DNA from: Candidatus Ornithoclostridium faecigallinarum
GTDB taxonomy: Bacteria > Bacillota > Clostridia > Christensenellales > UBA3700
Direction: 5' to 3'
DNA length: 64,000 bases
Assembly (NCBI GenBank): GCA_018713665.1
Contig: DVOI01000001.1
Span: forward strand, 6,346-70,345
Part shown: piece by piece, positions 9,930 to 51,563 of the stretch
How the letters are laid out: each line of letters starts with the position of its first letter
Numbering within the stretch: position 1 is the stretch's first letter
Translations under genes and position numbers: made by a program
The notes under the pieces: model-generated
The model's database searches: none
Told to the model about the DNA's origin: nothing
What the model saw: the letters and a program-made list of their open reading frames with translations, nothing else

Positions 9930-11180
9930 TTACTTTACGAGCACCTTTTTGAGCTGCGCGAATCTGGGCAATCCGTCCTCGAGCTTTGCCTTGCTCTCAC
10001 CCTGAATGAGCGGCAGAGCATAGTCGACATACTCTTGCGACAGCATTGTGCCGTCGTCGACAATCCACTCGATCGGAACCTTCTTTTCGGTGTTGGCGGC
10101 CTTGGCGACGCTCATGACGCCAATCTTGCACTTGTACTTGCCGCTCGACATGTCTCTCTTGAGGATGACCATCTTGTCGGTCGTACCGCGAACCGCATAC
10201 TTGACCGCGGCGGCGCCGGCTTTGAACGCCTCTTCGACGTCGGTCTTGGACGCGAGGTGAGCCGCGCATCTCTGCATCAGCGAGAATTCGACCGCTCTCG
10301 TCTTGCAGCCGAACTCGTTCTTGCACATGTTGGCAAGCGCCGCGCCGACGCCGCCCAACTGAGCGTGACCGAACGAATCCTTTGCGAGATTGCCGCCGGC
10401 GAGCACTTCGGCGATCAGGTTGCCCTTGTCGTCGGAGATGCCTTCGGAGACGGCGACCATGCACTTGCCGCCCGTCCTCTCCATGACAGCTTTGACGTCA
10501 TTCTTGAACTTGTCGATTGAGAACGGAATCTCGGGCAGATAGATGAGGTCGGCGCCGAGACCCTTGTAGTTGGCGAGGCTTGCCGCGGCGGTCAGCCAGC
10601 CGGCATGTCTGCCCATGATTTCGACGACGGTGATCATCGGGGTGTCATAGACGTTTGCGTCGAGCTTGAGCTCCATAATCGTCGTCGCGACATACTTCGC
10701 GGCGCTGCCGTAACCGGGGCAGTGATCGGTGCCGAACAGGTCGTTGTCGATGGTCTTGGGGACGCCGATGACTCTGCACTCCCAACCCGACTTCTTCATG
10801 AACTTGCTGACCTTGTTGCAGGTGTCCATCGAGTCGTTGCCGCCGTTGTAGAAGAAATAGCGGATGTTGTACTTCTTAAAGACCTCGAGCAGTCTCTTGT
10901 AGTCGGTGTCGTCAATCTTCTCGGGCTTGAGCTTGTATCTGACCGATCCGAGCGCGGAAGACGGCGTATTTTTGAGTCTGAGCAATTCTTCGGGGTCCTC
11001 TTTGGACATGTCGTAGAATTTCTCTTCGAGCACGCCTCTGATACCGTGCGCCGCGCCGTAAACGGCGGTGATGCAATCTTGCTTGAGCGCCTCGGTGAAC
11101 ACGCCCGCTGCGGACGAGTTGATGACCGAAGTGGGGCCTCCGGACTGACCGAACATGCAGGCTCCGACCAATTTTTCCAT
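9930..11180 (-). CDS. pfp: long-type 6-phosphofructokinase, probably pyrophosphate-dependent
   Basis: 416 aa from ATG 11180 (AAGGAGGA RBS); PFK-A fold (MFGQSGGPTSVINSS); GGDG specificity motif replaced by GGND; Arg-rich upstream extension of the track ORF rejected. Confidence 0.75.
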   Translation of the reverse strand: MEKLVGACMFGQSGGPTSVINSSAAGVFTEALKQDCITAVYGAAHGIRGVLEEKFYDMSKEDPEELLRLKNTPSSALGSVRYKLKPEKIDDTDYKRLLEVFKKYNIRYFFYNGGNDSMDTCNKVSKFMKKSGWECRVIGVPKTIDNDLFGTDHCPGYGSAAKYVATTIMELKLDANVYDTPMITVVEIMGRHAGWLTAAASLANYKGLGADLIYLPEIPFSIDKFKNDVKAVMERTGGKCMVAVSEGISDDKGNLIAEVLAGGNLAKDSFGHAQLGGVGAALANMCKNEFGCKTRAVEFSLMQRCAAHLASKTDVEEAFKAGAAAVKYAVRGTTDKMVILKRDMSSGKYKCKIGVMSVAKAANTEKKVPIEWIVDDGTMLSQEYVDYALPLIQGESKAKLEDGLPRFAQLKKVLVK

Positions 11181-11233: not shown

Positions 11234-12199
11234 TTACAGGCTGAGGATGCGCGACTTCTTGTACAATTCGTCGTTGAACTTGCGCTCCATCGCGAGAGCC
11301 GCGCCTATCTCCTCGTCTACGATTTTGTTGTCGCGGATGCCTACCACTCTGCCGCCCTTGTCCGCAAGCAACAGGTCGACAGCCCTGATTGCGAACTCCG
11401 CCGCAAGCGTGCGGTCTTGGTTGCTGGGGTTGCCTCCGCGCTGGATATATCCGAGCGTCGTCGTCTTGATCGAGCCGGTGACGCCGTTCTCCTTGAGACG
11501 GGCTTTGAGTTCTTCCGCCTTGCACACTCCTTCGGCGAGGACGATGATGTCCGACGTCTTGCCTATGCGCTGATTGAGCTTGATGCTCTTGACAACGGCG
11601 TTCAGGTCGAAATTCTCTTCGGGGACGAGGGTAATCTCGGCGCCGCCGCCCAATCCGGCGTAGAGCGCAATGTCGCCGCACTTGCGACCCATCACCTCGA
11701 TGATGCAGACGCGGTCGTGAGAGGTCATCGTATCGCGCAGGTTGTTGATTGCGCCGAGCACGGTGTTGACCGTCGTATCGAATCCGAGCGTGAAGTCGGT
11801 GTATGCAAGGTCGTTGTCGATAGTACCGGGAATGCCGACCACTTTGACGCCGAACATATCGTACATATCCTTCGCGCCGCGGAAGCTGCCGTCGCCGCCT
11901 ATGACGACGAGCCCGTCGATGCCGTACGCCTCCATGTTGTCGACCGCCTGCTGGATATACTCCTTTTGTTTGAACTCCTCACAGCGCGCGGTCTTGAGGA
12001 TTGTGCCTCCGCGCTGAATGATGTCGGACACGCTGCGCTTGTTCATCTGGAAGATGTGGTTGTCAATCAATCCGACATAGCCGCGCTCGATGCCGTAGAC
12101 TTCGAGCCCGTTGTAAATCGCATAGCGAGTGACCGCCCTTATGCATGCGTTCATGCCGGGCGCGTCGCCGCCGCTTGTCAAAATCCCTATTCTCTTCAT
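11234..12199 (-). CDS. pfkA: ATP-dependent 6-phosphofructokinase
   Basis: 321 aa; MKRIGILTSGGDAPGMNA, VVIGGDGS, classic PfkA length; GGAGAG RBS. Confidence 0.95.
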   Translation of the reverse strand: MKRIGILTSGGDAPGMNACIRAVTRYAIYNGLEVYGIERGYVGLIDNHIFQMNKRSVSDIIQRGGTILKTARCEEFKQKEYIQQAVDNMEAYGIDGLVVIGGDGSFRGAKDMYDMFGVKVVGIPGTIDNDLAYTDFTLGFDTTVNTVLGAINNLRDTMTSHDRVCIIEVMGRKCGDIALYAGLGGGAEITLVPEENFDLNAVVKSIKLNQRIGKTSDIIVLAEGVCKAEELKARLKENGVTGSIKTTTLGYIQRGGNPSNQDRTLAAEFAIRAVDLLLADKGGRVVGIRDNKIVDEEIGAALAMERKFNDELYKKSRILSL

Positions 12200-12203
12200 A
12201 AAG

Positions 12204-12434
12204 TCACTCTCCGCTCCTGATGACTCCGTGCTTGGTATAAATCTCCGCCTTGCCGCGGATCTTGATCGCGGAAGTCCTTTGCGTAAACTGCATGACGCAC
12301 ACCTCGTTTTTGTCGAGGTTTTCGGTGTGGTGGGGCTTTGTGCTGTCGCCCCTCGTCAAGCCTATAATCTGTACGGGAGAGTCAATCGCCTTGATGACGA
12401 TGTACTCTTCGCTTGCATAAAATGTCTCGTCCAT
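12204..12434 (-). CDS. mtrB: trp RNA-binding attenuation protein (TRAP)
   Basis: 76 aa from ATG 12434 (GAGGTG upstream). Matches recalled B. subtilis MtrB end to end: YIVIKAIDSPVQIIGLTRGDSTKPHHTENLDKNEVCVMQFTQRTSAIKIRGKAEIYTKHGVI vs [62 protein letters not shown]. Confidence 0.85.
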   Translation of the reverse strand: MDETFYASEEYIVIKAIDSPVQIIGLTRGDSTKPHHTENLDKNEVCVMQFTQRTSAIKIRGKAEIYTKHGVIRSGE

Positions 12435-12495
12435 ATTCACCTCGGTCAACGCCATTATATCAAATTCGAGCGCAAATGCCAAATATTTGACCGCA

Positions 12496-15400
12496 TTATT
12501 GCCCCGAAGGCGTCTTCGAACCCGGAATTTTTCCTACCTTTACGTTTGCGGCCCCCAGCACCGCCTTGAGTTGATACTCGAGCGTGCCTCCGAGGTCGGC
12601 TCCCGCGCCGTTCAATCTCGACAGCGTCCTGCCTCTTTGCACGAACACCGGATGTCTGCCGGGGTTGAGCTTGATGTACTCCTCGGCGGCGACGAGGTCG
12701 CGGTCTGTCTCTATGCGGAGATAGAGACACTCGGTGACGGGAACTTCGTCCTCTCCTTCATCTTCTCCCTCGTCCGCATATTCTCCGCTGCCTCCCCAGG
12801 GGATAACGTCCGCGACGGACATAGTGACCTTGCCGTTCTCAAACCTCAGCCTGCCGTTGAGACGCACAATCGCGTCCTCGGCAATCAGCGCGCGATACTT
12901 GTCGTACGTCCTGGGGAAGAACACCGCCTCGATTGAAGCGTAGAGATCTTCGATTGTCGCATACGCCATGATTTTTGCGTCCTTTGTCGTCTTTTTGCTG
13001 ACGTCGTGCAACATGCCGCAGAGTGAGACATACTTGCCGTCGAACGCGCTTTGAACGCCGAACAGCTCTTCCGCTCCGCTCTCGTCCTCGTCATCACCCT
13101 CTTCCGCCGCCGTGGCGTTCTGAATGTAATCGACCAGCGGCTCCAGGGTGAAGCTCTCCTGCTTGAGCTCTTCCTTGTGAGCGTCGAGCGGATGCCCTGA
13201 CAGATACACGCCGAGCGCCTCTTTTTCGAGCGCGAGTTTTTGCATTTGCGGATACTCGGCGAGCGGAGGGATGTCGTCCTCGGGGGCGGCGTCCTCGCCC
13301 ATCAAATCGAACAGACTGATCTGACCGCTCTCCTTGCCCTTGCGGTCGCGCGCCGCCTGTTTGAGCAGTCTCTCATACGACGCCAACAGCGCCGAACGCG
13401 TATAGCCGAAGCAGTCGAACGCGCCCGCCTTGATCAGACCTTCCATGATGCGCTTGTTGATGACGCCCGTCTCGAGACGGGACAGCATGTCGGACACGCT
13501 CTTGTACTCTCCGTTTTTCTCGCGCTCTTCGACGAGAGCCTGCATCGCGTCCGCGCCGACGTTCTTGATGCCGTTGAGTCCGTAGCGAAGCTTGCCGTCC
13601 TCGACCTTGAACAGCACTCGGCTCTTGTTGATGTCGGGCGGCAAAATCACAAAGCCGTTGTCGCGCAGGATTGTCAAATACTTTTGCACCTCTTCTGCGT
13701 TTGTGATGCGGTTGTTGATGACCGCGGCGAACAGCTCAATCTCGTAATATCTCTTGTAATATGCGGTTTGATAGGACAGCACCGCATAGGCGGCGGCGTG
13801 CGACTTGTTGAACGCGTACTTGGCGAAGCCCGCCATTTCGTCGAAGATCTCGTTGGCGGTCTTTTCGTCGACGATGCCGACCTCAATCGCGCCGGGGATG
13901 CGCGGTTTGGCAAGCCCGATGAGTCTGCCGTCGGTAGAATATTTCGCAGGTTCGGGCGGCGCGCCGTAGAGGAAGATCTTGCGCTGCGCCTCCATGACCT
14001 CGGCTTTTTTCTTGCCCATCGCGCGGCGCAGCATGTCCGCCGCCCCGAGCGAATAGCCGGCAAGCAGCTGCGCCATCTGCATGACCTGTTCCTGATAGAC
14101 GAGACAGCCGTATGTCATCTCGAGTATGGGTTTGAGCAGCGGATGGCGGTAGGTGACGCTCTCGGGATTCTTCTTGGACGCGATATATTTGGGAATGCTG
14201 TCCATCGGACCGGGGCGATAGAGCGACACGCCCGCTATGACGTCTTCGAGCGAGGACGGCTGAAGTTCTTTCATAAACTTTTTCATGCCGGCGGATTCGA
14301 GCTGGAACACCGCGTCGGTGGCGCCGCTGCTGATCTGCCGGTAGACCTCGGGGTCGTCGTAGCCCAGCTTGTCGAAGTCGACGTCCACGCCGTGATCCTC
14401 TTTGACGTACTGCCGCGCCTTGTCTATGTCGGTCAGCGTCTTGAGCCCGAGGAAGTCCATTTTGAGCATGCCCATCTCCTCGACCTCTTCCTTTTGGAAC
14501 TGCGTGGTAATGTCCTCGCCGTTGCGCTGAAGGGGGACGTAGTCGGAGATGACCTCTTTGCATATGACGACGCCTGCGGCGTGCTTCGAGCAGTTGCACG
14601 GCATCGCCTCGAGTTTGTACGCCATGTCGATGACCTGCCTCATCATCGGGTCGGTGTTGTACACTTCGACCGCTTCGGGCGAATAGAGCTTGACCTCGTC
14701 CTCTTTCTCGCTCTTGTGGAAGACGTTGGACAGGGTGACCTTGGGATTGTTGGCAATCGTCTTTGTCAGCTTGTTGACATCGGCTAGCGGCACGTTATAC
14801 ACTCTTGCAATCTTCTTGATTGCCGCCTTCGCCTTCATCGTGCCGAGCGCCAAGATTTGACAGACCTTGTCCGAACCGTATTTGCGCGTGACGTATTCGA
14901 TGACCTCGCCTCTCCTCTCGTAACAGAAGTCGACGTCAAAGTCGGGCGGCGACTCGCGTTCGGGGTTGAGGAAGCGCTCAAAGAGCAGGTTGTACTTGAG
15001 CGGATCGACGTCGGTGATGCGGATAGCATACGCTATGATACTGCCCACGCCCGAACCTCTGCCTGCGCCGACGGGGATGCCGTGCGTGCGCGCGTAGTTG
15101 ATGAAGTCCCAGACTACGAGGTAGTAGTCCGCGAAGCCCTTGGTGATGATGACATCGAGCTCTCGCTCCGCCCTCTGTTTGATCTCGGGTGTAATCGTGC
15201 CGTACCGCCACTCCAAGCCCTTGTACGCCATGCGGCGCAGATAGTCGGGCGACGACGAGCCGTCCTCGGCGACGTACGGCGGCTGCAAGTCCTGTTTTTC
15301 GATGACGACGTTGCACTTTTCCATCACTTCGACGGTGTTGGTGACCGCCTCGGGGCACCACGAGAACGTCTCCATCATCTCATCGTATGTCTTGAGGTAG

Positions 15401-16305
15401 AATTGATCTGTCTCAAAGCGCATGCGTTCGGGGTCGTCAATCGTCTTGCCCGTCTGAATGCAGAGCATGACGTCGTGCATCTCTGCATCCTCGCGCTCGG
15501 CGTAGTGTACGTCGTTGGTCGCGACGACCTTGACGCCTATCTCTCGCGCAATCTTGACGAGCAACGGATTGATGCGCCTCTGCTCTTCTATGCCGTGGTC
15601 CTGCAGTTCGATATAGAAGTCGCCCGGCTCGAACATGTCGCGCAGCATGATCGCATAGTTTTTCGCCTCTTCATAGTTGTTTTCGAGCAACAACTCGGGG
15701 ATTCGCCCGGCAAGACACGCGGACAGACAAATCACCCCTTCGGAATGCTTTTTGAGCGTCTCGATATCTATGCGCGGCTTGTAGTAAAAACCCTCGACAT
15801 ACGCCATGCTGTCCAACTGAACGAGATTGCGATAGCCGACGTTGTTTTTTGCAATGAGCACAAGGTGATTGAAGCTGCCGTTGCGCCCCGTCTGCTCGTG
15901 CATGTTTTCGCAGGTGTAGAACTCGCAGCCGATGACGGGTTTGAGCCCTGCCTTCTTCATCGCCTTGTAGAAGGTGAACACGCCGAACATGTTGCCGTGA
16001 TCGGTGATTGCCATGCCGGGCATCCCCTTTTCAATCGCCTTGTCGACGAGGGGGTTGTCCTTGTGGTTGGGCGCGACGAGCCTTGTCGCCCCGTCCAGCA
16101 GACTGAACTCGGTGTGAACGTGCAGATGCACGAACGGCTTGACGGGCGGACGTGGCTTCTCGGGCTTTTTCTCCTCCTCCCCTTCCTTTTTCGGAGGCTC
16201 CTGTTCCTGCTCACTCTCCTCGCGAGCGGCGTCCTCTTGCTCCATCTGTTCGAGCAAAGCTTCGTCGTCCTGTTCGACGTCGATGTCTTCGATATTGTCA
16301 GCCAT
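12496..16305 (-). CDS. dnaE: DNA polymerase III alpha subunit
   Basis: 1269 aa; PHP motif HLHVHTEFSLLDG, pol III alpha core and OB region; GGAGG RBS inside whiA 3' end; 55-aa acidic N-terminal extension. Confidence 0.95.
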   Translation of the reverse strand: MADNIEDIDVEQDDEALLEQMEQEDAAREESEQEQEPPKKEGEEEKKPEKPRPPVKPFVHLHVHTEFSLLDGATRLVAPNHKDNPLVDKAIEKGMPGMAITDHGNMFGVFTFYKAMKKAGLKPVIGCEFYTCENMHEQTGRNGSFNHLVLIAKNNVGYRNLVQLDSMAYVEGFYYKPRIDIETLKKHSEGVICLSACLAGRIPELLLENNYEEAKNYAIMLRDMFEPGDFYIELQDHGIEEQRRINPLLVKIAREIGVKVVATNDVHYAEREDAEMHDVMLCIQTGKTIDDPERMRFETDQFYLKTYDEMMETFSWCPEAVTNTVEVMEKCNVVIEKQDLQPPYVAEDGSSSPDYLRRMAYKGLEWRYGTITPEIKQRAERELDVIITKGFADYYLVVWDFINYARTHGIPVGAGRGSGVGSIIAYAIRITDVDPLKYNLLFERFLNPERESPPDFDVDFCYERRGEVIEYVTRKYGSDKVCQILALGTMKAKAAIKKIARVYNVPLADVNKLTKTIANNPKVTLSNVFHKSEKEDEVKLYSPEAVEVYNTDPMMRQVIDMAYKLEAMPCNCSKHAAGVVICKEVISDYVPLQRNGEDITTQFQKEEVEEMGMLKMDFLGLKTLTDIDKARQYVKEDHGVDVDFDKLGYDDPEVYRQISSGATDAVFQLESAGMKKFMKELQPSSLEDVIAGVSLYRPGPMDSIPKYIASKKNPESVTYRHPLLKPILEMTYGCLVYQEQVMQMAQLLAGYSLGAADMLRRAMGKKKAEVMEAQRKIFLYGAPPEPAKYSTDGRLIGLAKPRIPGAIEVGIVDEKTANEIFDEMAGFAKYAFNKSHAAAYAVLSYQTAYYKRYYEIELFAAVINNRITNAEEVQKYLTILRDNGFVILPPDINKSRVLFKVEDGKLRYGLNGIKNVGADAMQALVEEREKNGEYKSVSDMLSRLETGVINKRIMEGLIKAGAFDCFGYTRSALLASYERLLKQAARDRKGKESGQISLFDLMGEDAAPEDDIPPLAEYPQMQKLALEKEALGVYLSGHPLDAHKEELKQESFTLEPLVDYIQNATAAEEGDDEDESGAEELFGVQSAFDGKYVSLCGMLHDVSKKTTKDAKIMAYATIEDLYASIEAVFFPRTYDKYRALIAEDAIVRLNGRLRFENGKVTMSVADVIPWGGSGEYADEGEDEGEDEVPVTECLYLRIETDRDLVAAEEYIKLNPGRHPVFVQRGRTLSRLNGAGADLGGTLEYQLKAVLGAANVKVGKIPGSKTPSGQ

Positions 16306-27684: not shown

Positions 27685-29106
27685 CTATTTTTGCATTGAC
27701 CCGAAGTACTTGTCGACCAGCTCTTTGCCGCCCGTCTCGGCGACTACTCCGCAGTCGATGAGCGCAGCCTTGTCGCACAGCGCGGCAGCGCACCGAAAGT
27801 CGTGCGTTACGGTAATCATCGTATTGCCCGTCTGCTCGTGCAGCGCGTTGAGAGTCTCGGCCATTTTGCACAGTCCTTCATAATCCTGCCCCACGGTCGG
27901 CTCGTCCAACAGCAGCACGTCGGGTTCGCACGCGACGACCGCCGCAATCGATACTCTTCTCTTTTGTCCCTCGGAAAGGGACTGCGGATGGCGCCGCCAA
28001 AGGTGCTCTATCCCGAACAGCTCGGCGACGTGCTCGGCATATTCGGACGACTTTGCGCCAAACTTCAGCTCCTGCTCGACCGTCGGCATGAAGAGTTGAT
28101 AGTCCGGATTTTGATAGACCACGCCGACCCTGTTGAACCATGCGCGGCTGCCGCGAGGTCTTTGCTTGAACTTGTCGTCGAGGTGTTGAATTATACTCCC
28201 TCCGGTCGGCTTGTACAATCTTGCGATGAGGCGCATCAACGTAGTCTTGCCGCAGCCGTTTTCGCCTAGCAAAATCGTTCTGCCGCCCTTGGGGATTTCG
28301 AGCGTGACGCCCTTCAAGATCTCCCTGTCCTTGACGGAAAACTTGACGTCTTTGAGGTCGAACAGCGCATCTCCGCCCTCAAATGCCGGACAGCCGTCTT
28401 CTATCTTTGCCGTGCGCCCAACGAGGTATTGCCGCTCGTCCTGCGCCTTTTTGACCTTTCCTTTGCCGATATACCACACCGTATCGACAAAAGGCAGCAC
28501 CATGTCGATACGATGTTCTATGACGACAATCGCATAGCCGGCACGTGCGAGCGAACGCAGCGTTCCCATCAGCATAGCCGCGCCGTCCTTGTCGAGATTG
28601 GCGAGAGGCTCGTCCAAGATGATTATCTTCTGCCCCATCGCAAGCGTCGACGCGGTGATCAATCGCTGTTTTTGTCCGCCGGACAGAGTGCGGCATCTCG
28701 CGCCTTTATCCAGCTTCATCAACCGGCAGACAATCTCAATCTGCCGATCGATCATGGCGGAAGGATAGGCGAGATTTTCGCAGCCGAACGCGATTTCGTC
28801 CTCGACGAATTTTTGAACAATCTGTTCGTCGGCATTCTGCAACACCACGCCCACCTTGCGGCAGATGTAGCCGAGTTTTTTGCCCTTGATGTCCTCGCCG
28901 GCAATCTTCACTTCTCCCGACAATTCGCCGTAATTTACGTTGGGAATGATGCCGCTGACGATGTACATCAACGTGCTCTTGCCCTCGCCGGAATGCCCGG
29001 ACAGGAGGGTCACTTCTCCGTATTCGGCGACAAAGTCGACGCCTTCGAGAATCTTTGTCTTCCCGTCGTACGAAAAGTCTACGCCTTTCAATTCTATCGC
29101 GTTCAT
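27685..29106 (-). CDS. ecfA: fused tandem ECF-type ABC ATPase (EcfA-EcfA')
   Basis: 473 aa from ATG 29106 (ATGA overlap); two Walker A sites (GHSGEGKST, GENGCGKTT) and two signatures ([16 protein letters not shown]). Confidence 0.85.
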   Translation of the reverse strand: MNAIELKGVDFSYDGKTKILEGVDFVAEYGEVTLLSGHSGEGKSTLMYIVSGIIPNVNYGELSGEVKIAGEDIKGKKLGYICRKVGVVLQNADEQIVQKFVEDEIAFGCENLAYPSAMIDRQIEIVCRLMKLDKGARCRTLSGGQKQRLITASTLAMGQKIIILDEPLANLDKDGAAMLMGTLRSLARAGYAIVVIEHRIDMVLPFVDTVWYIGKGKVKKAQDERQYLVGRTAKIEDGCPAFEGGDALFDLKDVKFSVKDREILKGVTLEIPKGGRTILLGENGCGKTTLMRLIARLYKPTGGSIIQHLDDKFKQRPRGSRAWFNRVGVVYQNPDYQLFMPTVEQELKFGAKSSEYAEHVAELFGIEHLWRRHPQSLSEGQKRRVSIAAVVACEPDVLLLDEPTVGQDYEGLCKMAETLNALHEQTGNTMITVTHDFRCAAALCDKAALIDCGVVAETGGKELVDKYFGSMQK

Positions 29107-29780
29107 AGTGCCACCGTAAGCACCGCGCCGACGACTATACCGACGATGAACAGCACGTCCGAAAGCGCGGGGTATTCCTTTTTGTAGATTGAATAGAGTG
29201 CGCCGCCCAAAGTGAAACCGCGCGTCTCGACGGAGAGCGCGAGCGTGTCCGAGATGTTGACAAGCCTCATTACGAACGGCACGAGAAATGCTCGATAAAA
29301 GATTTTCGGGGCAAATATGCTCCCTGCGCCGCGCGTCTTCATCGCCTCTCTGACGCGCCCTATCTCTCCCTTGAGCATTGGCACGAATGACATTGATATG
29401 AGCATGCCCAGCGTAATCGCTCTCGGCATACGCGCCTGCGAGAGAGCGCGCGTCATACGGACCGCCTCGACGGACATCGAGAGCGCGACCCCCAAAAAGA
29501 GCGCGCCGAAACGGTTGAGCATCGAGATTGCAGCCAGGGCGTCTCCGCCTGCCGACGCATATGCTATGCCGGCGAACGCGCCGCCGAATACGACGAACGC
29601 CGGAATCATCTTCAAGCACCCTTTCAGACACCCGAACAGACAGACCCAAACGAGCACGCCGAGCAGATAGTAGCTCATGTTTTCCTCACGCGCCGCGACA
29701 AGACCGAAGACAATCACGAACAGCGACGCCGCGACGGCGACAAGAGGATAGAGCCTCGCCCTGAGTTTGAAAAACGTCAT
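29103..29780 (-). CDS. ecfT: ECF transporter transmembrane T component (CbiQ/EcfT family)
   Basis: 225 aa from ATG 29780 (ATGA overlap both sides); multi-TM; position between S-like and A components. Confidence 0.75.
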   Translation of the reverse strand: MTFFKLRARLYPLVAVAASLFVIVFGLVAAREENMSYYLLGVLVWVCLFGCLKGCLKMIPAFVVFGGAFAGIAYASAGGDALAAISMLNRFGALFLGVALSMSVEAVRMTRALSQARMPRAITLGMLISMSFVPMLKGEIGRVREAMKTRGAGSIFAPKIFYRAFLVPFVMRLVNISDTLALSVETRGFTLGGALYSIYKKEYPALSDVLFIVGIVVGAVLTVAL

Positions 29781-30493
29781 TTTTTGAGCACCCCCGCCTT
29801 TTTGAGTTCGCGCGAAACGACCATGCCTATCACCGAGCCGACAAAGCACAGCGCGGTGATTGCAAGCGTCATCAGCGCGATGACCCACGGCTCTGTCGCG
29901 CCGAGGAACATCGAGACCGCCTCGTTTTCCGCGCCCGTCACCGTATAGTTGACATTGTAATAGAGATACAACAGCGGCACGGTGAGCGGCATATACAGCG
30001 TGCCGGCAAGCACGCACGCCCAATCGCTCTTGTAGCTTCGGAAGATTGCCAAGACAATCAGCTCATCGACGATTGCACATACGGCAATCAACGCCATCGG
30101 CGGAAACATCATCAACAGGAAGAGCGCCATAAAGACACCCATAATCGTCATGGCGCCCGCCTTGCGCACTTTCATCAGCCCTATGACCGGAAAGACGGAA
30201 AATTGAAGCCCCAGCCCCAACTGAATGATTCCGAACACCGGGACGTGTATCAAAAGCGGCATGATTGCGCTCGTCACGAGCGTGCACGCCATTATGATGG
30301 CAATGAAAACAATGTCTTTGATTTTGAAGTGACGGAACGCCCTGCTCTCGTCCCTCTCTTTCGCCTCGCGCTTTTTCTGCTTTTCCTCGAAAGCCGTCCT
30401 CTCGGCGGCGACCGCCTCTTGCATGCGCGCCGAGTTTTCAATCAAGGCGGCGATATCGTCGCTCCTATCGTCGAACGTCTTTTCGCCCGTCAT
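29777..30493 (-). CDS. MptD / Trep_Strep family putative ECF S component with 57-aa charged N-terminal extension
   Basis: 238 aa; about 180-aa strongly hydrophobic core ending in a basic tail (SRELKKAGVLKK), as I recall for the Trep_Strep/MptD family; ATGA overlap with upstream ABC gene. Confidence 0.65.
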   Translation of the reverse strand: MTGEKTFDDRSDDIAALIENSARMQEAVAAERTAFEEKQKKREAKERDESRAFRHFKIKDIVFIAIIMACTLVTSAIMPLLIHVPVFGIIQLGLGLQFSVFPVIGLMKVRKAGAMTIMGVFMALFLLMMFPPMALIAVCAIVDELIVLAIFRSYKSDWACVLAGTLYMPLTVPLLYLYYNVNYTVTGAENEAVSMFLGATEPWVIALMTLAITALCFVGSVIGMVVSRELKKAGVLKK

Positions 30494-32178
30494 CTCTCCA
30501 CCTCCTCTATCACTCCGTCCTTGATGCGATATACGCGGTCGGCGATTGCCATCGTCGATTCGCGGTGAGACACCAAGATGATGCTCTTTTCCCTGCGGCT
30601 GTCCTTGAGCGCCTTGAGAATGATGCCCTCGTTGATGCTGTCGACGTTGCTTGTCGGCTCGTCGAGCAATATCAATTTGCCGTCATGCAGGAATGCCCTC
30701 GCAAGTCCTATCCTCTGCTTTTCGCCTGCGGATAAGTCGTCGCCGAGAGCGCCGACCTGTGTGTCGTAACCGTTAGGAAGCTTCATGATGAACTCGTCGA
30801 CGGACGCCTTTCGGCAAGCCTGTCTCATCTCGTCCATTGTAGCGTCCGCCTTGGCTATGCGAAGGTTGTCGGCGACGCTTTGGTCGAAGAGATAGGTACT
30901 CTGACTGACCATGGTCACGTTGTCCGTCAACGCCGCGCTGTCAATCTCGTCGATGTCGACGCCGTTGTATTCGATGCTGCCCGAATCCTTCTCCCAAAAG
31001 CGCAGCAGCAATTTGAGCAACGTGGATTTGCCGCAGCCGCTCGCGCCGACTATGCCGACGATCTCGCCCTTTTCGGCGTGCATGCATACGTCTTTGAGCA
31101 CTCTTTCGTTGGCGTCGTATCCGAACGAAAGGTCGATTGTCTCGACGCGTTCGAAGTCGAGCGGTTTGCCGTCTTCAACCGGCTCGACGGCGGGTTTTTC
31201 GGCAAGCAATTTGAGCACGCGGTCGCCCGACGCAAACGTCTGCGTAAGGTTGCCCGGAAGCGCCGATATCGCAATTACGGGGCCGAACGAACCGAACACC
31301 GCAACCACCCCGACAATCATCATGCCCACGCTCAATCTGTCGGTTACGACCATGATGACGCCCACCGCCAAAGTGAGGATTACGAACACGGATACGAAAA
31401 TTTCGGTCAAACCCGCCGCTGTCGAAATCTTACGCTTGAGTTTTTTCGTATAGTCCAAAAGCGAGTCGCTGCGCCTGTCCACTTCGGCAAGCCGCGCGTT
31501 CTCGGCATTGTTGAGAACGATGTCTTTGACGCCCTTTATACTGTCCAAGAAGTAGGCGTTGAACGATGAGAATTCCGCCCTGTAGCCCACGCCGCCCGAG
31601 CGGAGCAGTTTGGACGTAATCATGGGCAATACGATGCCTATCGCGAGATAGCCGCACATCGCGACGAGCGCCAAGTACCAGCTCGACACGCATCCGACAA
31701 ACGCGAACACCGCGCTCGACACGACGACCGCAATGCAGATGGGCGAAATCGTATGCGCATAGAACACTTCGAGCGTCTCGATGTCCGAGGTGATCATTGC
31801 GATGATTGCGCCCTTTTGCTTGCTTTCCAACTTGGCGGGACAGAGCACGCGCAGCGCGCCGAATATCTTGTCGCGCAACACCGCGAGCAAGCGAAACGCG
31901 ATGTAGTGATTGCTGTATTGCTCGGCATAGCGCAACGCCCCTCGCAGCACGCCGAACCCGACCGCAAGGCCCATAATCCAGCCGTACGACAGGGCGATGT
32001 TTTCCCCGAGCGCCTTGGCGACGCCGACCGCGCCCATCAACGTAACGCCCATTGCGCTGATAAACCCGAGACTGCCGTTAATAACGGCGATTACCATTAT
32101 ATAAGCGAGCGATCCGAGCAAGACAATCAGTCTCGCCATAATCTTGCCGCCGTTCATTCTCGTATTCTTTTCAGTCAT
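30490..32178 (-). CDS. ABC exporter permease/ATPase fusion, CydC-like half-transporter
   Basis: 562 aa from ATG 32178 (8-nt overlap with upstream gene); 6-TM domain plus NBD (GASGCGKST, LSAGEKQR, LLDEPTS). Confidence 0.8.
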   Translation of the reverse strand: MTEKNTRMNGGKIMARLIVLLGSLAYIMVIAVINGSLGFISAMGVTLMGAVGVAKALGENIALSYGWIMGLAVGFGVLRGALRYAEQYSNHYIAFRLLAVLRDKIFGALRVLCPAKLESKQKGAIIAMITSDIETLEVFYAHTISPICIAVVVSSAVFAFVGCVSSWYLALVAMCGYLAIGIVLPMITSKLLRSGGVGYRAEFSSFNAYFLDSIKGVKDIVLNNAENARLAEVDRRSDSLLDYTKKLKRKISTAAGLTEIFVSVFVILTLAVGVIMVVTDRLSVGMMIVGVVAVFGSFGPVIAISALPGNLTQTFASGDRVLKLLAEKPAVEPVEDGKPLDFERVETIDLSFGYDANERVLKDVCMHAEKGEIVGIVGASGCGKSTLLKLLLRFWEKDSGSIEYNGVDIDEIDSAALTDNVTMVSQSTYLFDQSVADNLRIAKADATMDEMRQACRKASVDEFIMKLPNGYDTQVGALGDDLSAGEKQRIGLARAFLHDGKLILLDEPTSNVDSINEGIILKALKDSRREKSIILVSHRESTMAIADRVYRIKDGVIEEVER

Positions 32179-33904
32179 TGTCGTCCTCCCCGTCGAGATA
32201 TCCCTCTTCGAGCGCCTTTTGCGCGTTGAACAGCCGCGCGTATTCTCCGCCCTTTGCGATGAGCTCGTCATGCGTGCCGCTCTCTTTGACTTCGCCGTCG
32301 CTCATGAAATAAATGTTGTCCGCGGGAACCACGTTGGCGAGCCTGTGCGAGATGACGATGACGTTCTTTGCCTTTGAAAGTTTGCGTATGTTGTCCATGA
32401 TGATGGCTTCGCTGTCGCCGTCGATGTTGGACGTCGCCTCGTCAAACGCATATATCTCCTTGTCGGCAACGAGCGCGACCGCCAACGCAAGCCGCTGCTT
32501 TTGTCCACCCGAAATGTTGCCGCCGTCCTCTGCAATCACCTTGTCGAGTCCGCCGCCCGACTTCACGAACTCGGCGAGCCGCACCTGCTCGAGCGCCGCA
32601 TATATCTCTTCGTCCGACACCTCGGGACGGGCGAGTTTGAAATTGTCGCGCACGCTCTCGTTGAATATGTAGGAATTATACGAGACAATCGCAAGGTGAG
32701 AATACCAGCCGGCACGCGAGATTTCGCTCAGCTTTTTGCCTCCTGCGAGCACCTCTCCTTCGCTCGGTCTGTATGCGCCGCTCAACAGATTGACGACTGT
32801 CGACTTGCCGCAGCCGCTCTCTCCGACGATTGCGGTCATCCCCACGCGCGGAAAGCTCATCGTCACGTCTTTGAGCACGTCGCGTTTGCCGTCGTACGAA
32901 AAGGTGACGCCGCGAAGCTGCGCGGTCGTATCGTCGATGTCTCCGTCGCCCCATTCGGGCTCTTTGGCTTGAAGAATCTCCAGGATTTTGCGCCCTGCGC
33001 TCGCGCCGTTCATCGCGACGTGGAACGCGCTGCCCAGCGACCTTAGCGGCAGAAAGAATTCCACCGCAATCAACACGAGGAAGAGCGCTTTGATCGGATC
33101 GGCGCCGTTCATCACTCCGCTTACCGCAAGCGCTATGCCTGCGCCGGCGCCGCCGTAGGCGACGAGATCCATGATCGTCGTGCTGGCAAGCTGCATGACC
33201 AACACCTTCATCGTAATCTTGCGGAAGTCCTCTGCGGAAGCGTTGATCTGTTCGTGCTTGCGCGCGTCCGCCTTGAAAATTTTGAGCTCTTTCAGCCCCT
33301 GCACGCTGTCCAAAAACACGTCGCCCATCGATGTGTACTTGCCCCAATACTTTGCAAAAATGCGCTTGGCGTACTTGGACACCGCGACTATCGAAATCGG
33401 AATCAGCGGCACGCAGACAATCAGCATCACCGCCGTCCGCCAATCAATCGGAGCGCATATCGCGAACAATATGAACGGCGCAATCATCGAATAGAAAAAT
33501 TGCGGCAGATAGGTCGAATAGTAGAGGTCGAGCTGCTCGATGCCCTCGACGCCGACCTGGGTCATGCCTGCCATCGTCGCGCTGTCGGACGAGCGCACGC
33601 CGAGCCTCAGCATCTTGTCGTACGCGCGGTGGCGCAAATCCTTTTTGACGTGCGCCCCAAGCGCGTTTTTGAACTCATTCGTCGCCTTCGTAATGCAAAA
33701 TCTCAACGCTATGCACAGCGCCGCGATGAGCGCAGGCGCAACATACGACGACGCCGCCGCGCCGTCCGCCGCAAGCCCTATCGCGTAACATATGCACGCG
33801 GTGACTGCGGTGTTGGCAAACAGGCCGAATATCATCGCGATTACCGAATAGGCGATATATTTGCGGTTGCCTCCCAACAGCGAGAGCAGCTCCTTGTCAA
33901 TCAT
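32171..33904 (-). CDS. ABC exporter permease/ATPase fusion, CydD-like half-transporter
   Basis: 577 aa; 6-TM domain plus NBD (GESGCGKST, ISGGQKQR, AFDEATS); 8-nt overlap with ygbA-like gene. Confidence 0.8.
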   Translation of the reverse strand: MIDKELLSLLGGNRKYIAYSVIAMIFGLFANTAVTACICYAIGLAADGAAASSYVAPALIAALCIALRFCITKATNEFKNALGAHVKKDLRHRAYDKMLRLGVRSSDSATMAGMTQVGVEGIEQLDLYYSTYLPQFFYSMIAPFILFAICAPIDWRTAVMLIVCVPLIPISIVAVSKYAKRIFAKYWGKYTSMGDVFLDSVQGLKELKIFKADARKHEQINASAEDFRKITMKVLVMQLASTTIMDLVAYGGAGAGIALAVSGVMNGADPIKALFLVLIAVEFFLPLRSLGSAFHVAMNGASAGRKILEILQAKEPEWGDGDIDDTTAQLRGVTFSYDGKRDVLKDVTMSFPRVGMTAIVGESGCGKSTVVNLLSGAYRPSEGEVLAGGKKLSEISRAGWYSHLAIVSYNSYIFNESVRDNFKLARPEVSDEEIYAALEQVRLAEFVKSGGGLDKVIAEDGGNISGGQKQRLALAVALVADKEIYAFDEATSNIDGDSEAIIMDNIRKLSKAKNVIVISHRLANVVPADNIYFMSDGEVKESGTHDELIAKGGEYARLFNAQKALEEGYLDGEDDND

Positions 33905-34280
33905 TTCGCTTCTCCTCTTTGTCTTTCATCTCTTTCTCTTTTTGTTTTTGTCTTTCTTGTTTTGCGTTTGCGCGCCTTGTCTTGATTGTCTCCGCGAGAT
34001 GCGAAAAGGCGATTACGGGGTGCGTAAAGGTCAGTCGCGGCCCCGAATAGCGCATCACGGCGGCAATCTTTTGCCTCATGTCGGGGCGATAGCAATGTAT
34101 CTTGCAGTTGGAGCAAAACGGCTTGTCGTCCCCGAACGGACACCTCTCGCGGCGCTGTCGTACATACTCGGCAAGCTCGGCACACTCGGGGCACAATTCA
34201 CCCTTTTTGCTCTTGTGCTTGCCGCGGCAATACATCGCGATCATCAACTCCACGATTTCGAGATCTTTTTGCTTTTCCAT
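33897..34280 (-). CDS. YgbA_NO (nitrous oxide-stimulated promoter) family Cys-rich protein
   Basis: 127 aa from ATG 34280 (GAGG 6 nt upstream; alternative ATG 34310); MYCRGKH, LCPECAEL, RCPFGDDKPFCSNCKIHCYRPDMR, MRYSGPR match my recollection of the family; K/E-rich C-terminal tail. Confidence 0.7.
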   Translation of the reverse strand: MEKQKDLEIVELMIAMYCRGKHKSKKGELCPECAELAEYVRQRRERCPFGDDKPFCSNCKIHCYRPDMRQKIAAVMRYSGPRLTFTHPVIAFSHLAETIKTRRANAKQERQKQKEKEMKDKEEKRND

Positions 34281-34301
34281 ACGCGCCTCGCCGAATAGAT
34301 T

Positions 34302-34340
34302 TGTTAGCATTGGCTAACCGTCGGTTAGCATACACTAACC
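34302..34340 (-). promoter_or_regulatory. two tandem 18-bp palindromic operator-like sites in the operon leader
   Basis: Plus strand TGTTAG-cattgg-CTAACC (34302-34319) and GGTTAG-cataca-CTAACC (34323-34340); centres 21 bp apart; they sit between the -10 box and the start codon. Confidence 0.6.
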
Positions 34341-34351
34341 TTGCGAAAAAG

Positions 34352-34380
34352 ATTATAGCCTCTTTTGTCGCAAAATGCAA
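34352..34380 (-). promoter_or_regulatory. consensus SigA promoter of the six-gene operon
   Basis: Minus strand TTGCAT - 17 nt - TATAAT. Confidence 0.75.
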
Positions 34381-34420
34381 CCGATCGCAAGGGGTATCGC
34401 AAATTTTCTTTGCGTTTTCG

Positions 34421-50054: not shown

Positions 50055-51563
50055 ATGATACTCTATTCTTTCAAAAATTTGGAACAATTGACAAGGGCGA
50101 CTTCAAACAACGCCTACGTCTCGGCTGTGCCTCGGCTCGACTTCAAGCCGACCGACGGCAACCGCGCCGCAGTCCGCTTCCGCGGTTTGCGCAACGCGAC
50201 AATCGACGGCGCGGGCGCGACGCTGAGTCTCGACGGCAGAGGCTACTATTTCGTCCTCGAGGGGTGCGAGCGCGTGCTGCTCACCAATTTCACCCTTGAG
50301 ACCGCTCATCCCGAATATCTCGAGTTCACGGTGACAAACACCGCTTTCGGCGCAAGCGCCGACGTGCGCTTCGGCGGCGAATATGAGGTAGCGGAAGGCT
50401 CCCCTCTGTCCGTAAAGAGCGGCGAGCAAAATCTGCTTGCGTCGATGACAAATCCGGCGGTATATTGCCGCGACCTGAATGCCGACAAGATACGCCGCGA
50501 AAGTTCCGACCCTCTCGCCAAGCTCAAGGGCGCGTCAAAGATTGCGCCGTCCGCCGGAGGGACGCTCGCCAAATTGTCGTTTTCGGGGCTTACCGCACCC
50601 GTCAAAAAGGATTGCGTCTACATTCGCTTCGACGCGGACAAGACCTGCCCCGGCATCTTGCTGATCAATTGCAAGGACATCACCGTTCGCAACGTCACGA
50701 TACGCTATTGCCACGGCAGCGCAATCAAGGCGGATATGTGCGAAAACGTCACCATACAGGACGTCACTTTGCGCGCGCAGAGCGGACGCAGCGTCGCGAC
50801 TTTGGGTAGCGCGTTCGAGGCGGTCGAGTGCAACGGCTCGCTCTATATCTCCGACTGTCTGCTCGCCGCGACTCTCGCCGACACGGTGTCGGTCAAGGGC
50901 GCGCTCTATGACGTCGCTTCCGCTTCGGGCAATTCTTTGACATTGCGCTCTTCCGACGCGACCGCTCTGTCGCCGTTCGAAAAGGGCGACAAGGCGATAC
51001 TGACCGACAGCGCTCTCGCCCCCGTCGCGACGCTGATGGTGACCGGCTACGATCGCGACAGCCGCACCGTCTCCTTTGAGGAAACCCTGCCGCAAAACGC
51101 GTCGTCGCTGCGCGTCGAAAACGCAAGTCTGCACACCGCGGACGTCTTCTTCCGCCGCGCGACATTGCTCGGCTCGCCCGACAACGGGCTTGCCTTCTCA
51201 ACCTCGGGCTTTGTCCGCGCCGACTATTGCTCGTTCAAGAACATCGTCGGCAAAGCCGTCGTCTGCATGAGCGGACGCAACGGCAACGCCGGGCTTCCCA
51301 AGCGCGTCGAGATTGAGGCGAACAGGTTCGAACAATGCCTCGACACCGCAGTCGAGCTGCTTCCCTCCTGCTCGGGCAAAGCGGCGCTCGGCAGTGTGGA
51401 CATCTATGGCAACACTTGGATGGAGTGCGGCCGCTCGGCAATCGCCGCCGCGCGCTGCGAATCGATCTCCGTCAAACGCAACGTCGGCGACACGGACAAG
51501 TATCAGACCAAGATCTCGCAATGCCCCAAGGTCGACAGCGACGGCGTGGATTATATGTATTGA
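50055..51563 (+). CDS. right-handed parallel beta-helix repeat protein, cytoplasmic, function unknown
   Basis: 502 aa; PbH1-like repeats (NCKDITVRNVTIRYCHGSAIKADMCENVTIQDVTL); no signal peptide. Confidence 0.6.
   Translation: MILYSFKNLEQLTRATSNNAYVSAVPRLDFKPTDGNRAAVRFRGLRNATIDGAGATLSLDGRGYYFVLEGCERVLLTNFTLETAHPEYLEFTVTNTAFGASADVRFGGEYEVAEGSPLSVKSGEQNLLASMTNPAVYCRDLNADKIRRESSDPLAKLKGASKIAPSAGGTLAKLSFSGLTAPVKKDCVYIRFDADKTCPGILLINCKDITVRNVTIRYCHGSAIKADMCENVTIQDVTLRAQSGRSVATLGSAFEAVECNGSLYISDCLLAATLADTVSVKGALYDVASASGNSLTLRSSDATALSPFEKGDKAILTDSALAPVATLMVTGYDRDSRTVSFEETLPQNASSLRVENASLHTADVFFRRATLLGSPDNGLAFSTSGFVRADYCSFKNIVGKAVVCMSGRNGNAGLPKRVEIEANRFEQCLDTAVELLPSCSGKAALGSVDIYGNTWMECGRSAIAAARCESISVKRNVGDTDKYQTKISQCPKVDSDGVDYMY

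Follow-up and report, generated by a model that had tools for sequence, protein, structure and literature searches.

The window, by which we mean the whole 64-kb stretch of DNA analyzed here, contains a single copy of an mtrB-like gene (12204..12434, minus strand), which encodes a 76-aa protein of the TRAP family and whose assignment draws on Pfam, NCBIfam, PDB chains, AF2/Foldseek, a residue table, and dN/dS. Upstream lies dnaE (DNA polymerase III alpha; 12496..16305, minus strand), a separate gene recognized by the Pfam families PHP, DNA_pol3_alpha, and HHH_6 on an identical product, the stop codon of which (12498..12496) is 61 nt upstream of the mtrB ATG at 12434. The TGA stop of mtrB (12206..12204) lies 4 nt upstream of the pfkA ATG at 12199. 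The pfkA gene (11234..12199, minus strand; Pfam PFK, 358 bits) encodes an ATP-dependent 6-phosphofructokinase of 321 aa and is the second gene of the operon, followed by a putative pfp of 416 aa (9930..11180, minus strand), a PFK-family gene by Pfam and synteny that we read as the PPi-dependent type. The window-clade operon is mtrB-pfkA-pfp, with two PFK-family genes in tandem and the putative pfp where other clades have pyk. The Shine-Dalgarno sequence of pfkA is located inside the last mtrB codons in the window and one related genome (L001), and in L003-L013 the mtrB-pfkA gap is 14-25 nt with its own GGAGG. The N-terminus of DnaE (16135-16305, minus strand) is an acidic, Glu/Lys/Pro-rich low-complexity extension of ~57 aa (MADNIEDIDVEQDDEALLEQ…KPRPPVKP) that has no counterpart in distant relatives, the alignments of which begin at residue 58.

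There are three candidate start codons for mtrB. The mechanical ORF list gives an anonymous 92-aa frame from a TTG (12204..12482, minus strand), as the preliminary description had said, and the commonest call for the product in public assemblies is an 83-aa form. A sigma-70-type promoter found by a promoter scan in the dnaE-mtrB gap (12454..12482, minus strand; TTGGCA-17 nt-TATAAT with an extended -10 TG, 11/12 matches) overlaps both of these longer candidate starts, and the conserved Met is immediately preceded by a stop codon in three of the sister genomes (L004, L005, and L009); therefore, we take the 76-aa start to be the true one. It is preceded by a Shine-Dalgarno sequence, GAGGTG (12438..12443, minus strand; read from the sequence), within a motif, gaggtgaa(t/c)atg, that is kept in all of L001-L013, and the 83-aa call probably has seven codons in excess. 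The 76-aa frame, its ATG and GAGGTG, its translation, and both flanking gaps had been given correctly in the preliminary description. Since a promoter-like element is found just 5' of mtrB in every related locus inspected, mtrB is the first gene of its operon. The exact mtrB product also occurs in 415 blocks of public assemblies, which argues for a common source organism rather than an assembly artefact.

Family membership and the tryptophan pocket

The window protein is a member of the TRAP family beyond reasonable doubt. An HMM search of the kind proposed in the preliminary description gave a strong match to Pfam TrpBP (PF02081) of 110.2 bits against a gathering threshold of 21.3 (E = 4e-32), covering residues 8-74 of the protein and profile positions 2-68/69. 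Among solved structures, phmmer returned TRAP chains only (1c9s, E = 4e-23), and identity to the solved G. stearothermophilus TRAP was ~58%. By BLASTP, 37/67 positions (55%) were identical to B. subtilis TRAP, in agreement with the earlier estimate by eye that more than half were. The B. subtilis sequence used for this comparison agrees in length and match coordinates with PDB chain 1wap_A. An AF2 single-chain model (pLDDT 87) has seven strands, and all 41 significant Foldseek matches were TRAP chains (TM 0.86/0.94, rmsd 0.7-1.1 Å, with 1c9s at ~1 Å). The TRAP identification was thus already right at the outset; what lies at the locus is a known regulator family with a variant pocket.

The description of this homolog as hidden holds in part. 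The gene has no name in the ORF track, and the protein clusters of its clade are named by no public source; however, canonical clostridial homologs are routinely annotated as MtrB. The NCBIfam MtrB equivalog model (NF009724) scores the window protein at 115.0 bits, below its cutoff of 117, and its clade at 114-120 bits. Other clostridial variants score 124-138 bits, B. subtilis MtrB 143.6 bits, and C. hydrogenoformans MtrB 145.5 bits.

The ligand-binding residues are given here in B. subtilis numbering, by alignment. All four side-chain tryptophan ligands (T30, T49, T52, and S53) are retained, including T30 and T49, which make essential side-chain hydrogen bonds to tryptophan (PMC1474065). The main-chain sites T25, G27, and Q47 are likewise retained, and D29, which contacts tryptophan through its main chain alone (PMC1474065), is replaced by Ser. 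Judged from this alignment, the tryptophan pocket is intact; a loss of these residues on proper alignment had been named in advance as a result that would speak against a TRAP, and they survive it.

The RNA pocket and its variants

The most distinctive feature of the protein, missed in the preliminary description, is the replacement of two RNA-pocket residues, F32P and K37N (P34 and N39 in its own numbering). In the Bacillus protein, the ring of F32 stacks on G3 of the (G/U)AG triplet, and K37 stacks on G1 with its alkyl chain and reads A2 through its main chain (PMC4854314, PMC1474065). K37 is one of four residues described as completely conserved and as important to RNA binding, and Ala at any of the four lowers RNA affinity 26- to >400-fold (PMC1474065); its replacement may weaken or abolish RNA binding. 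The remaining contacts are present: E36, K56, and R58, the readers of the G3 base; D39, which contacts G1/U1; and E42, which forms a salt bridge to R58 (PMC1474065, PMC4854314). Two properties of a functional equivalog of Bacillus MtrB are missing, namely the K37/F32 contacts and a score above the equivalog cutoff, and association with folE (mtrA) or trp was likewise not found within the 64 kb, the neighbours being dnaE, pfkA, and pfp, as is usual for clostridial mtrB.

This pocket is not peculiar to one assembly. P32 and N37 occur in all 13 related genomes (L001-L013; Christensenellaceae and Candidatus Ornithoclostridium MAGs), and an uncultured Christensenellaceae chromosome of 1.8 Mb (OZ006985.1) encodes a TRAP 99% identical to that of the window. 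Within the clade, the codons for P32 (CCC/CCT/CCG) and N37 (AAC/AAT) vary synonymously, and E36, D39, E42, K56, and R58 are invariant. The median pairwise dN/dS across 14 genomes is 0.07, with dS near saturation, and TRAP is 75-99% identical between genome pairs in which DnaE is ~65% identical. In a first set of 128 sequences, N37 was accompanied by a non-aromatic residue at position 32 (P, S, or T) in 36/36 cases. This co-occurrence points to concerted remodelling rather than decay, and the sequence comparisons as a whole indicate that the F32P/K37N pocket is held by selection. The invariance of the other RNA-contact residues in the clade further suggests that the RNA face is still in use.

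Similar departures are found elsewhere in the family. TRAP comprises 162 representatives at 50% identity among 1.84 billion proteins, many of which are fragments. The canonical F-E-K-D-K-R pocket is present in 83 of the 156 full-length sequences that were collected, a sample biased to relatives of the query, in which E36 and K56 are nearly invariant and positions 32, 37, and 58 are variable. R58 is replaced by Asn in L014, L016-L018, L020, L023, L027, and L040, by Lys in L021 and L031, and by His, together with R26S, in L028, while L024, L025, L029, and L038 carry K37H and D39E with R58S/C. These gut clostridial variants keep the tryptophan pocket and share the same dnaE-mtrB-orfX-pfkA context (orfX is described below). 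The loss of R58 or K37 in other clades indicates that departure from the Bacillus RNA pocket is recurrent in Clostridia, and the window clade is, on these alignments, one of several pocket variants.

These same observations bear on a different explanation, namely that the TRAP of this clade senses tryptophan without binding RNA, its RNA face contacting a protein partner or the ring acting as a tryptophan buffer or sensor. Neither of the residues that stack on the triplet bases is kept, the RNA affinity of B. subtilis TRAP drops progressively as the K37 side chain is shortened (PMC1474065), and canonical contacts are lost repeatedly, as R58 (N/S/C/H/K) or K37 (H), in syntenic clostridial clades. 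The face can also serve protein contacts, as anti-TRAP uses it in Bacillus (PMC1474065), and no arrays of triplets were found locally. However, the K37 side chain is dispensable to RNA binding in T30V TRAP (PMC1474065), the window clade does not have orfX, the neighbouring gene that is the candidate partner, and continued base recognition is the simplest account of why E36, K56, R58, D39, and E42 are invariant under strong purifying selection. We therefore regard a purely non-RNA role as unlikely, although it is the best placed of the alternatives, and return to RNA binding as the preferred reading.

Gene order, orfX, and the search for RNA targets

The preliminary description had treated the position of mtrB, in what it called a replication-glycolysis string, as odd and had suggested looking for the same linkage in relatives. 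To place the locus, the window DnaE, TRAP, and PfkA were compared by tblastn with 31 loci from species-representative genomes. The order dnaE, mtrB, pfkA was kept in 27/31 loci, including genomes whose DnaE is only 42-46% identical, and it extends as far as Carboxydothermus. In the complete C. hydrogenoformans genome, dnaE is followed by a gene for a 180-aa membrane protein and then by mtrB, a 61-aa ORF, accD, accA, pfkA, and pyk, and the order in Oscillospiraceae-type contigs is rapZ-yvcK-whiA-dnaE-mtrB-orfX-pfkA-pyk. The other known arrangement is the Bacillus folE-mtrB operon. A canonical TRAP in a Peptococcaceae genome (L041) lies outside the dnaE/pfkA context and is likewise without trp neighbours. 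Judging by gene order, the dnaE-pfkA interval is the inherited, standard location of clostridial mtrB and should not be read as evidence that TRAP regulates replication or glycolysis. The interest of the odd context was overstated, and the location alone implies no regulatory logic linking replication and glycolysis, given that the linkage is standard in Clostridia. The 180-aa predicted membrane protein between dnaE and mtrB of C. hydrogenoformans (L035 9320-9862) does not occur in the gut clades and has a weak, truncated C-terminal match to TrkA_C.

In most clades an ORF of 61-67 aa, here termed orfX, directly follows mtrB on its 3' side (consensus MWTVVYVSQ…CYEVLVP.TEL..AQDLIF). It was located at 6238-6432 in L014, 6240-6437 in L021, 6226-6426 in L024, 6258-6437 in L026, 10262-10447 in L035, 6001-6204 in L038, and 6001-6198 in L040. 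Neither L001-L013 nor any part of the window contains it, the window clade having lost the gene. The mtrB-pfkA gap of the distant clades had been considered as a candidate regulatory leader, which was rejected because the gap is protein-coding orfX. The orfX family comprises >600 clusters, all annotated as hypothetical and without a Pfam domain. Its AF2 model (pLDDT 82) has a beta-alpha-beta-beta-alpha topology, the structural neighbours of which are weak or generic (the PrgK/EscJ ring-building motif, DUF2007, PII, and ACT; all E > 0.01). It is possible that orfX is a partner of TRAP.

The search for RNA targets within the window was negative. No runs of at least five (G/U)AG triplets with 2-3-nt spacers were found on either strand of the 64 kb, which agrees with the earlier statement that the leaders of the window hold no convincing triplet array. 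Relaxed scans of the window for NAG, GAN, and G/T/A-AG gave counts at the level of shuffled sequence. The same was true when all 64 triplets and their one-N degenerates were scanned across the window, where the hits came from the periodicity of CG-rich coding sequence and from an A-rich tail of a coding region. The only run of six NAG repeats in the window (50143..50114, minus strand; AAG tc GAG cc GAG gca CAG cc GAG acg TAG) was rejected as a chance occurrence (0.2 expected), since it lies antisense within a coding ORF of 502 aa (50055..51563, plus strand). In ~345 kb of related loci, no periodic triplet array rose above the level of shuffled sequence, and the scans of 31 + 10 related loci gave nothing near mtrB or pfkA.

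Candidate target genes were likewise lacking. No trp, folE, or aromatic-pathway gene was found among the main ORFs of the window, and a search of the window for an anti-TRAP-like ORF, with an approximate query, returned only noise; the preliminary description had reported as much for trp, folE, and anti-TRAP genes. Rfam at gathering thresholds had no match on either strand of the 64 kb (no riboswitch, tRNA, or sRNA family), and so the window appears to hold no T-box. A literature search returned nothing usable on TRAP outside Bacilli or on tryptophan auxotrophy in Christensenellales. The local lack of targets is in any case uninformative, because the targets of TRAP in B. subtilis include transcripts of unlinked genes.

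We asked whether an ECF transporter module (27.7-30.5 kb) could be a trpP-like target and rejected it, as its S component belongs to the Trep_Strep family and its leader has palindromes and no triplet array. It belongs to a string of genes (27685-34280, minus strand) comprising a 127-aa Cys-rich YgbA_NO (PF11756) protein, two ABC exporters, and then the ECF genes, which encode the Trep_Strep-family S component, CbiQ (EcfT), and a fused double ATPase. The leader at ~34290-34400 carries two near-identical palindromes, GTTAGtgtatGCTAAC and GTTAGccaatGCTAAC, which resemble tandem operators.

The gene order also bears on whether TRAP might control its own operon in cis, coupling tryptophan to pfkA and pfp through the mtrB-pfkA junction or the leader. 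The linkage of mtrB to pfkA is very old, and the two genes are co-transcribed in every clade, with 4 nt between stop and ATG and the pfkA Shine-Dalgarno sequence inside mtrB in the window. However, neither the window nor any of the 31 loci showed periodic triplets in the leader, at the junction, or in the early part of pfkA, and the junction sequence is not conserved among sister genomes, with gaps of 4-25 nt or with orfX or accDA inserted. Furthermore, dnaE…pfkA-pyk recurs in all the distant lineages sampled, so that mtrB may simply ride in a stable cluster. We consider control in cis very improbable, and favour RNA targets in trans.

Proposed function and comparison with known systems

The function that we consider reasonably likely is that of a tryptophan-activated ring that binds spaced RNA triplets through its retained A2 and G3 readers, with an altered first-base preference or affinity and with tryptophan-related targets elsewhere in the genome. 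The mtrB gene has a strong promoter of its own and opens the mtrB-pfkA-pfp operon, and in this scheme its beta-sandwich product would form rings of 11 or 12 subunits, with L-tryptophan sensed at the interfaces between them. RNA repeats would then be bound through E36/K56/R58 for the G, the main chain of residue 37 for the A, and D39 with E42. Both stacking bookends, Phe32 on G3 and the alkyl chain of Lys37 on G1, would be gone from such a pocket, and with their loss NAG-type repeats are to be expected, read with a looser or different preference at the first base and/or bound more weakly at each site. The targets would presumably be genes of tryptophan synthesis, uptake, or catabolism located elsewhere in the ~1.8-Mb genome, as in B. 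subtilis. That the ORF is instead a decaying remnant or has arisen by chance, for which one could cite a score slightly under the NCBIfam equivalog cutoff and the lack of a name in any source, is refuted by the selection analysis (dN/dS ~0.07 over 14 genomes) and is hardly credible beside a TRAP better conserved than DnaE (75-99% vs ~65%), an intact promoter and Shine-Dalgarno sequence, and a full-length Pfam match at E = 4e-32.

TRAP is a textbook model of ligand-activated RNA binding and ring allostery. To our knowledge, experimental work on it has been confined to a handful of Bacilli, the RNA pockets of which are identical. The present analysis shows (i) that many gut Clostridia have TRAP, encoded in a fixed dnaE-mtrB-(orfX)-pfkA cluster, (ii) that several lineages carry selected substitutions at RNA contacts regarded as invariant, and (iii) that mtrB usually has an uncharacterised small gene beside it. 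Taken together, these findings provide natural variants for testing triplet recognition. The interest of the locus lies in these selected pocket variants and in the clostridial TRAP-orfX module. The gain on the window itself is modest, namely a correct name and a corrected start codon. Targets in the window clade may not follow the standard (G/U)AG model, and the observations point to an unexplored tryptophan-sensing circuit in abundant gut anaerobes, in which microbial tryptophan metabolism is host-relevant. Rather speculatively, clostridial TRAPs might not be plain copies of the Bacillus system at all, having a diversified RNA specificity or a protein output, with orfX, which accompanies mtrB in most lineages, as an analogue of anti-TRAP and, in small-genome gut anaerobes, a regulon of tryptophan uptake or catabolism (indole-type metabolites) in place of biosynthesis.

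We know of no protein partner of TRAP other than anti-TRAP (RtpA), a small protein that docks on TRAP in its tryptophan-activated state. The likeness of orfX to B. subtilis RtpA is conceptual only, since orfX is unrelated, has another fold, and is without the zinc-ribbon motif. Anti-TRAP binds the RNA face of TRAP in Bacillus (PMC1474065).

Compared with B. subtilis and G. stearothermophilus TRAP (1wap, 1c9s, and 1qaw), the window protein is alike in family, length, and fold, with 55-58% identity. The tryptophan ligands are identical except for the main-chain position D29S, and E36, D39, E42, K56, and R58 are kept, whereas the two that stack on G3 and G1 are replaced (F32P and K37N). The genetic setting differs as well: the window mtrB heads mtrB-pfkA-pfp, whereas Bacillus mtrB follows folE (mtrA), and the window is without nearby trp genes, (G/U)AG arrays, or an anti-TRAP gene. 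The number of subunits in the TRAP ring (11 vs 12) varies with the length of the C-terminus. The TRAP of Alkalihalobacillus halodurans (3zzl and 9bds) is a 12-mer with a canonical RNA pocket, so that both ring sizes occur in the family, and, relative to G. stearothermophilus TRAP, the window protein lacks 2 residues at its C-terminus.

Among the clostridial proteins, for which no experimental study of MtrB, including that of C. hydrogenoformans, was found in the literature searched (they are annotated only), the MtrB of C. hydrogenoformans Z-2901 is 72% identical to the window protein. It occupies the same dnaE/pfkA location, and has the C-terminal block GKAEIYTKHG in common with it. Unlike the window clade, it has a canonical F32/K37/K56/R58 pocket. 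In C. hydrogenoformans, orfX and accD-accA lie between mtrB and pfkA, which is followed by pyk, whereas the window clade is without orfX, accDA, and pyk at these positions and combines its conserved tryptophan ligands with P32 and N37.
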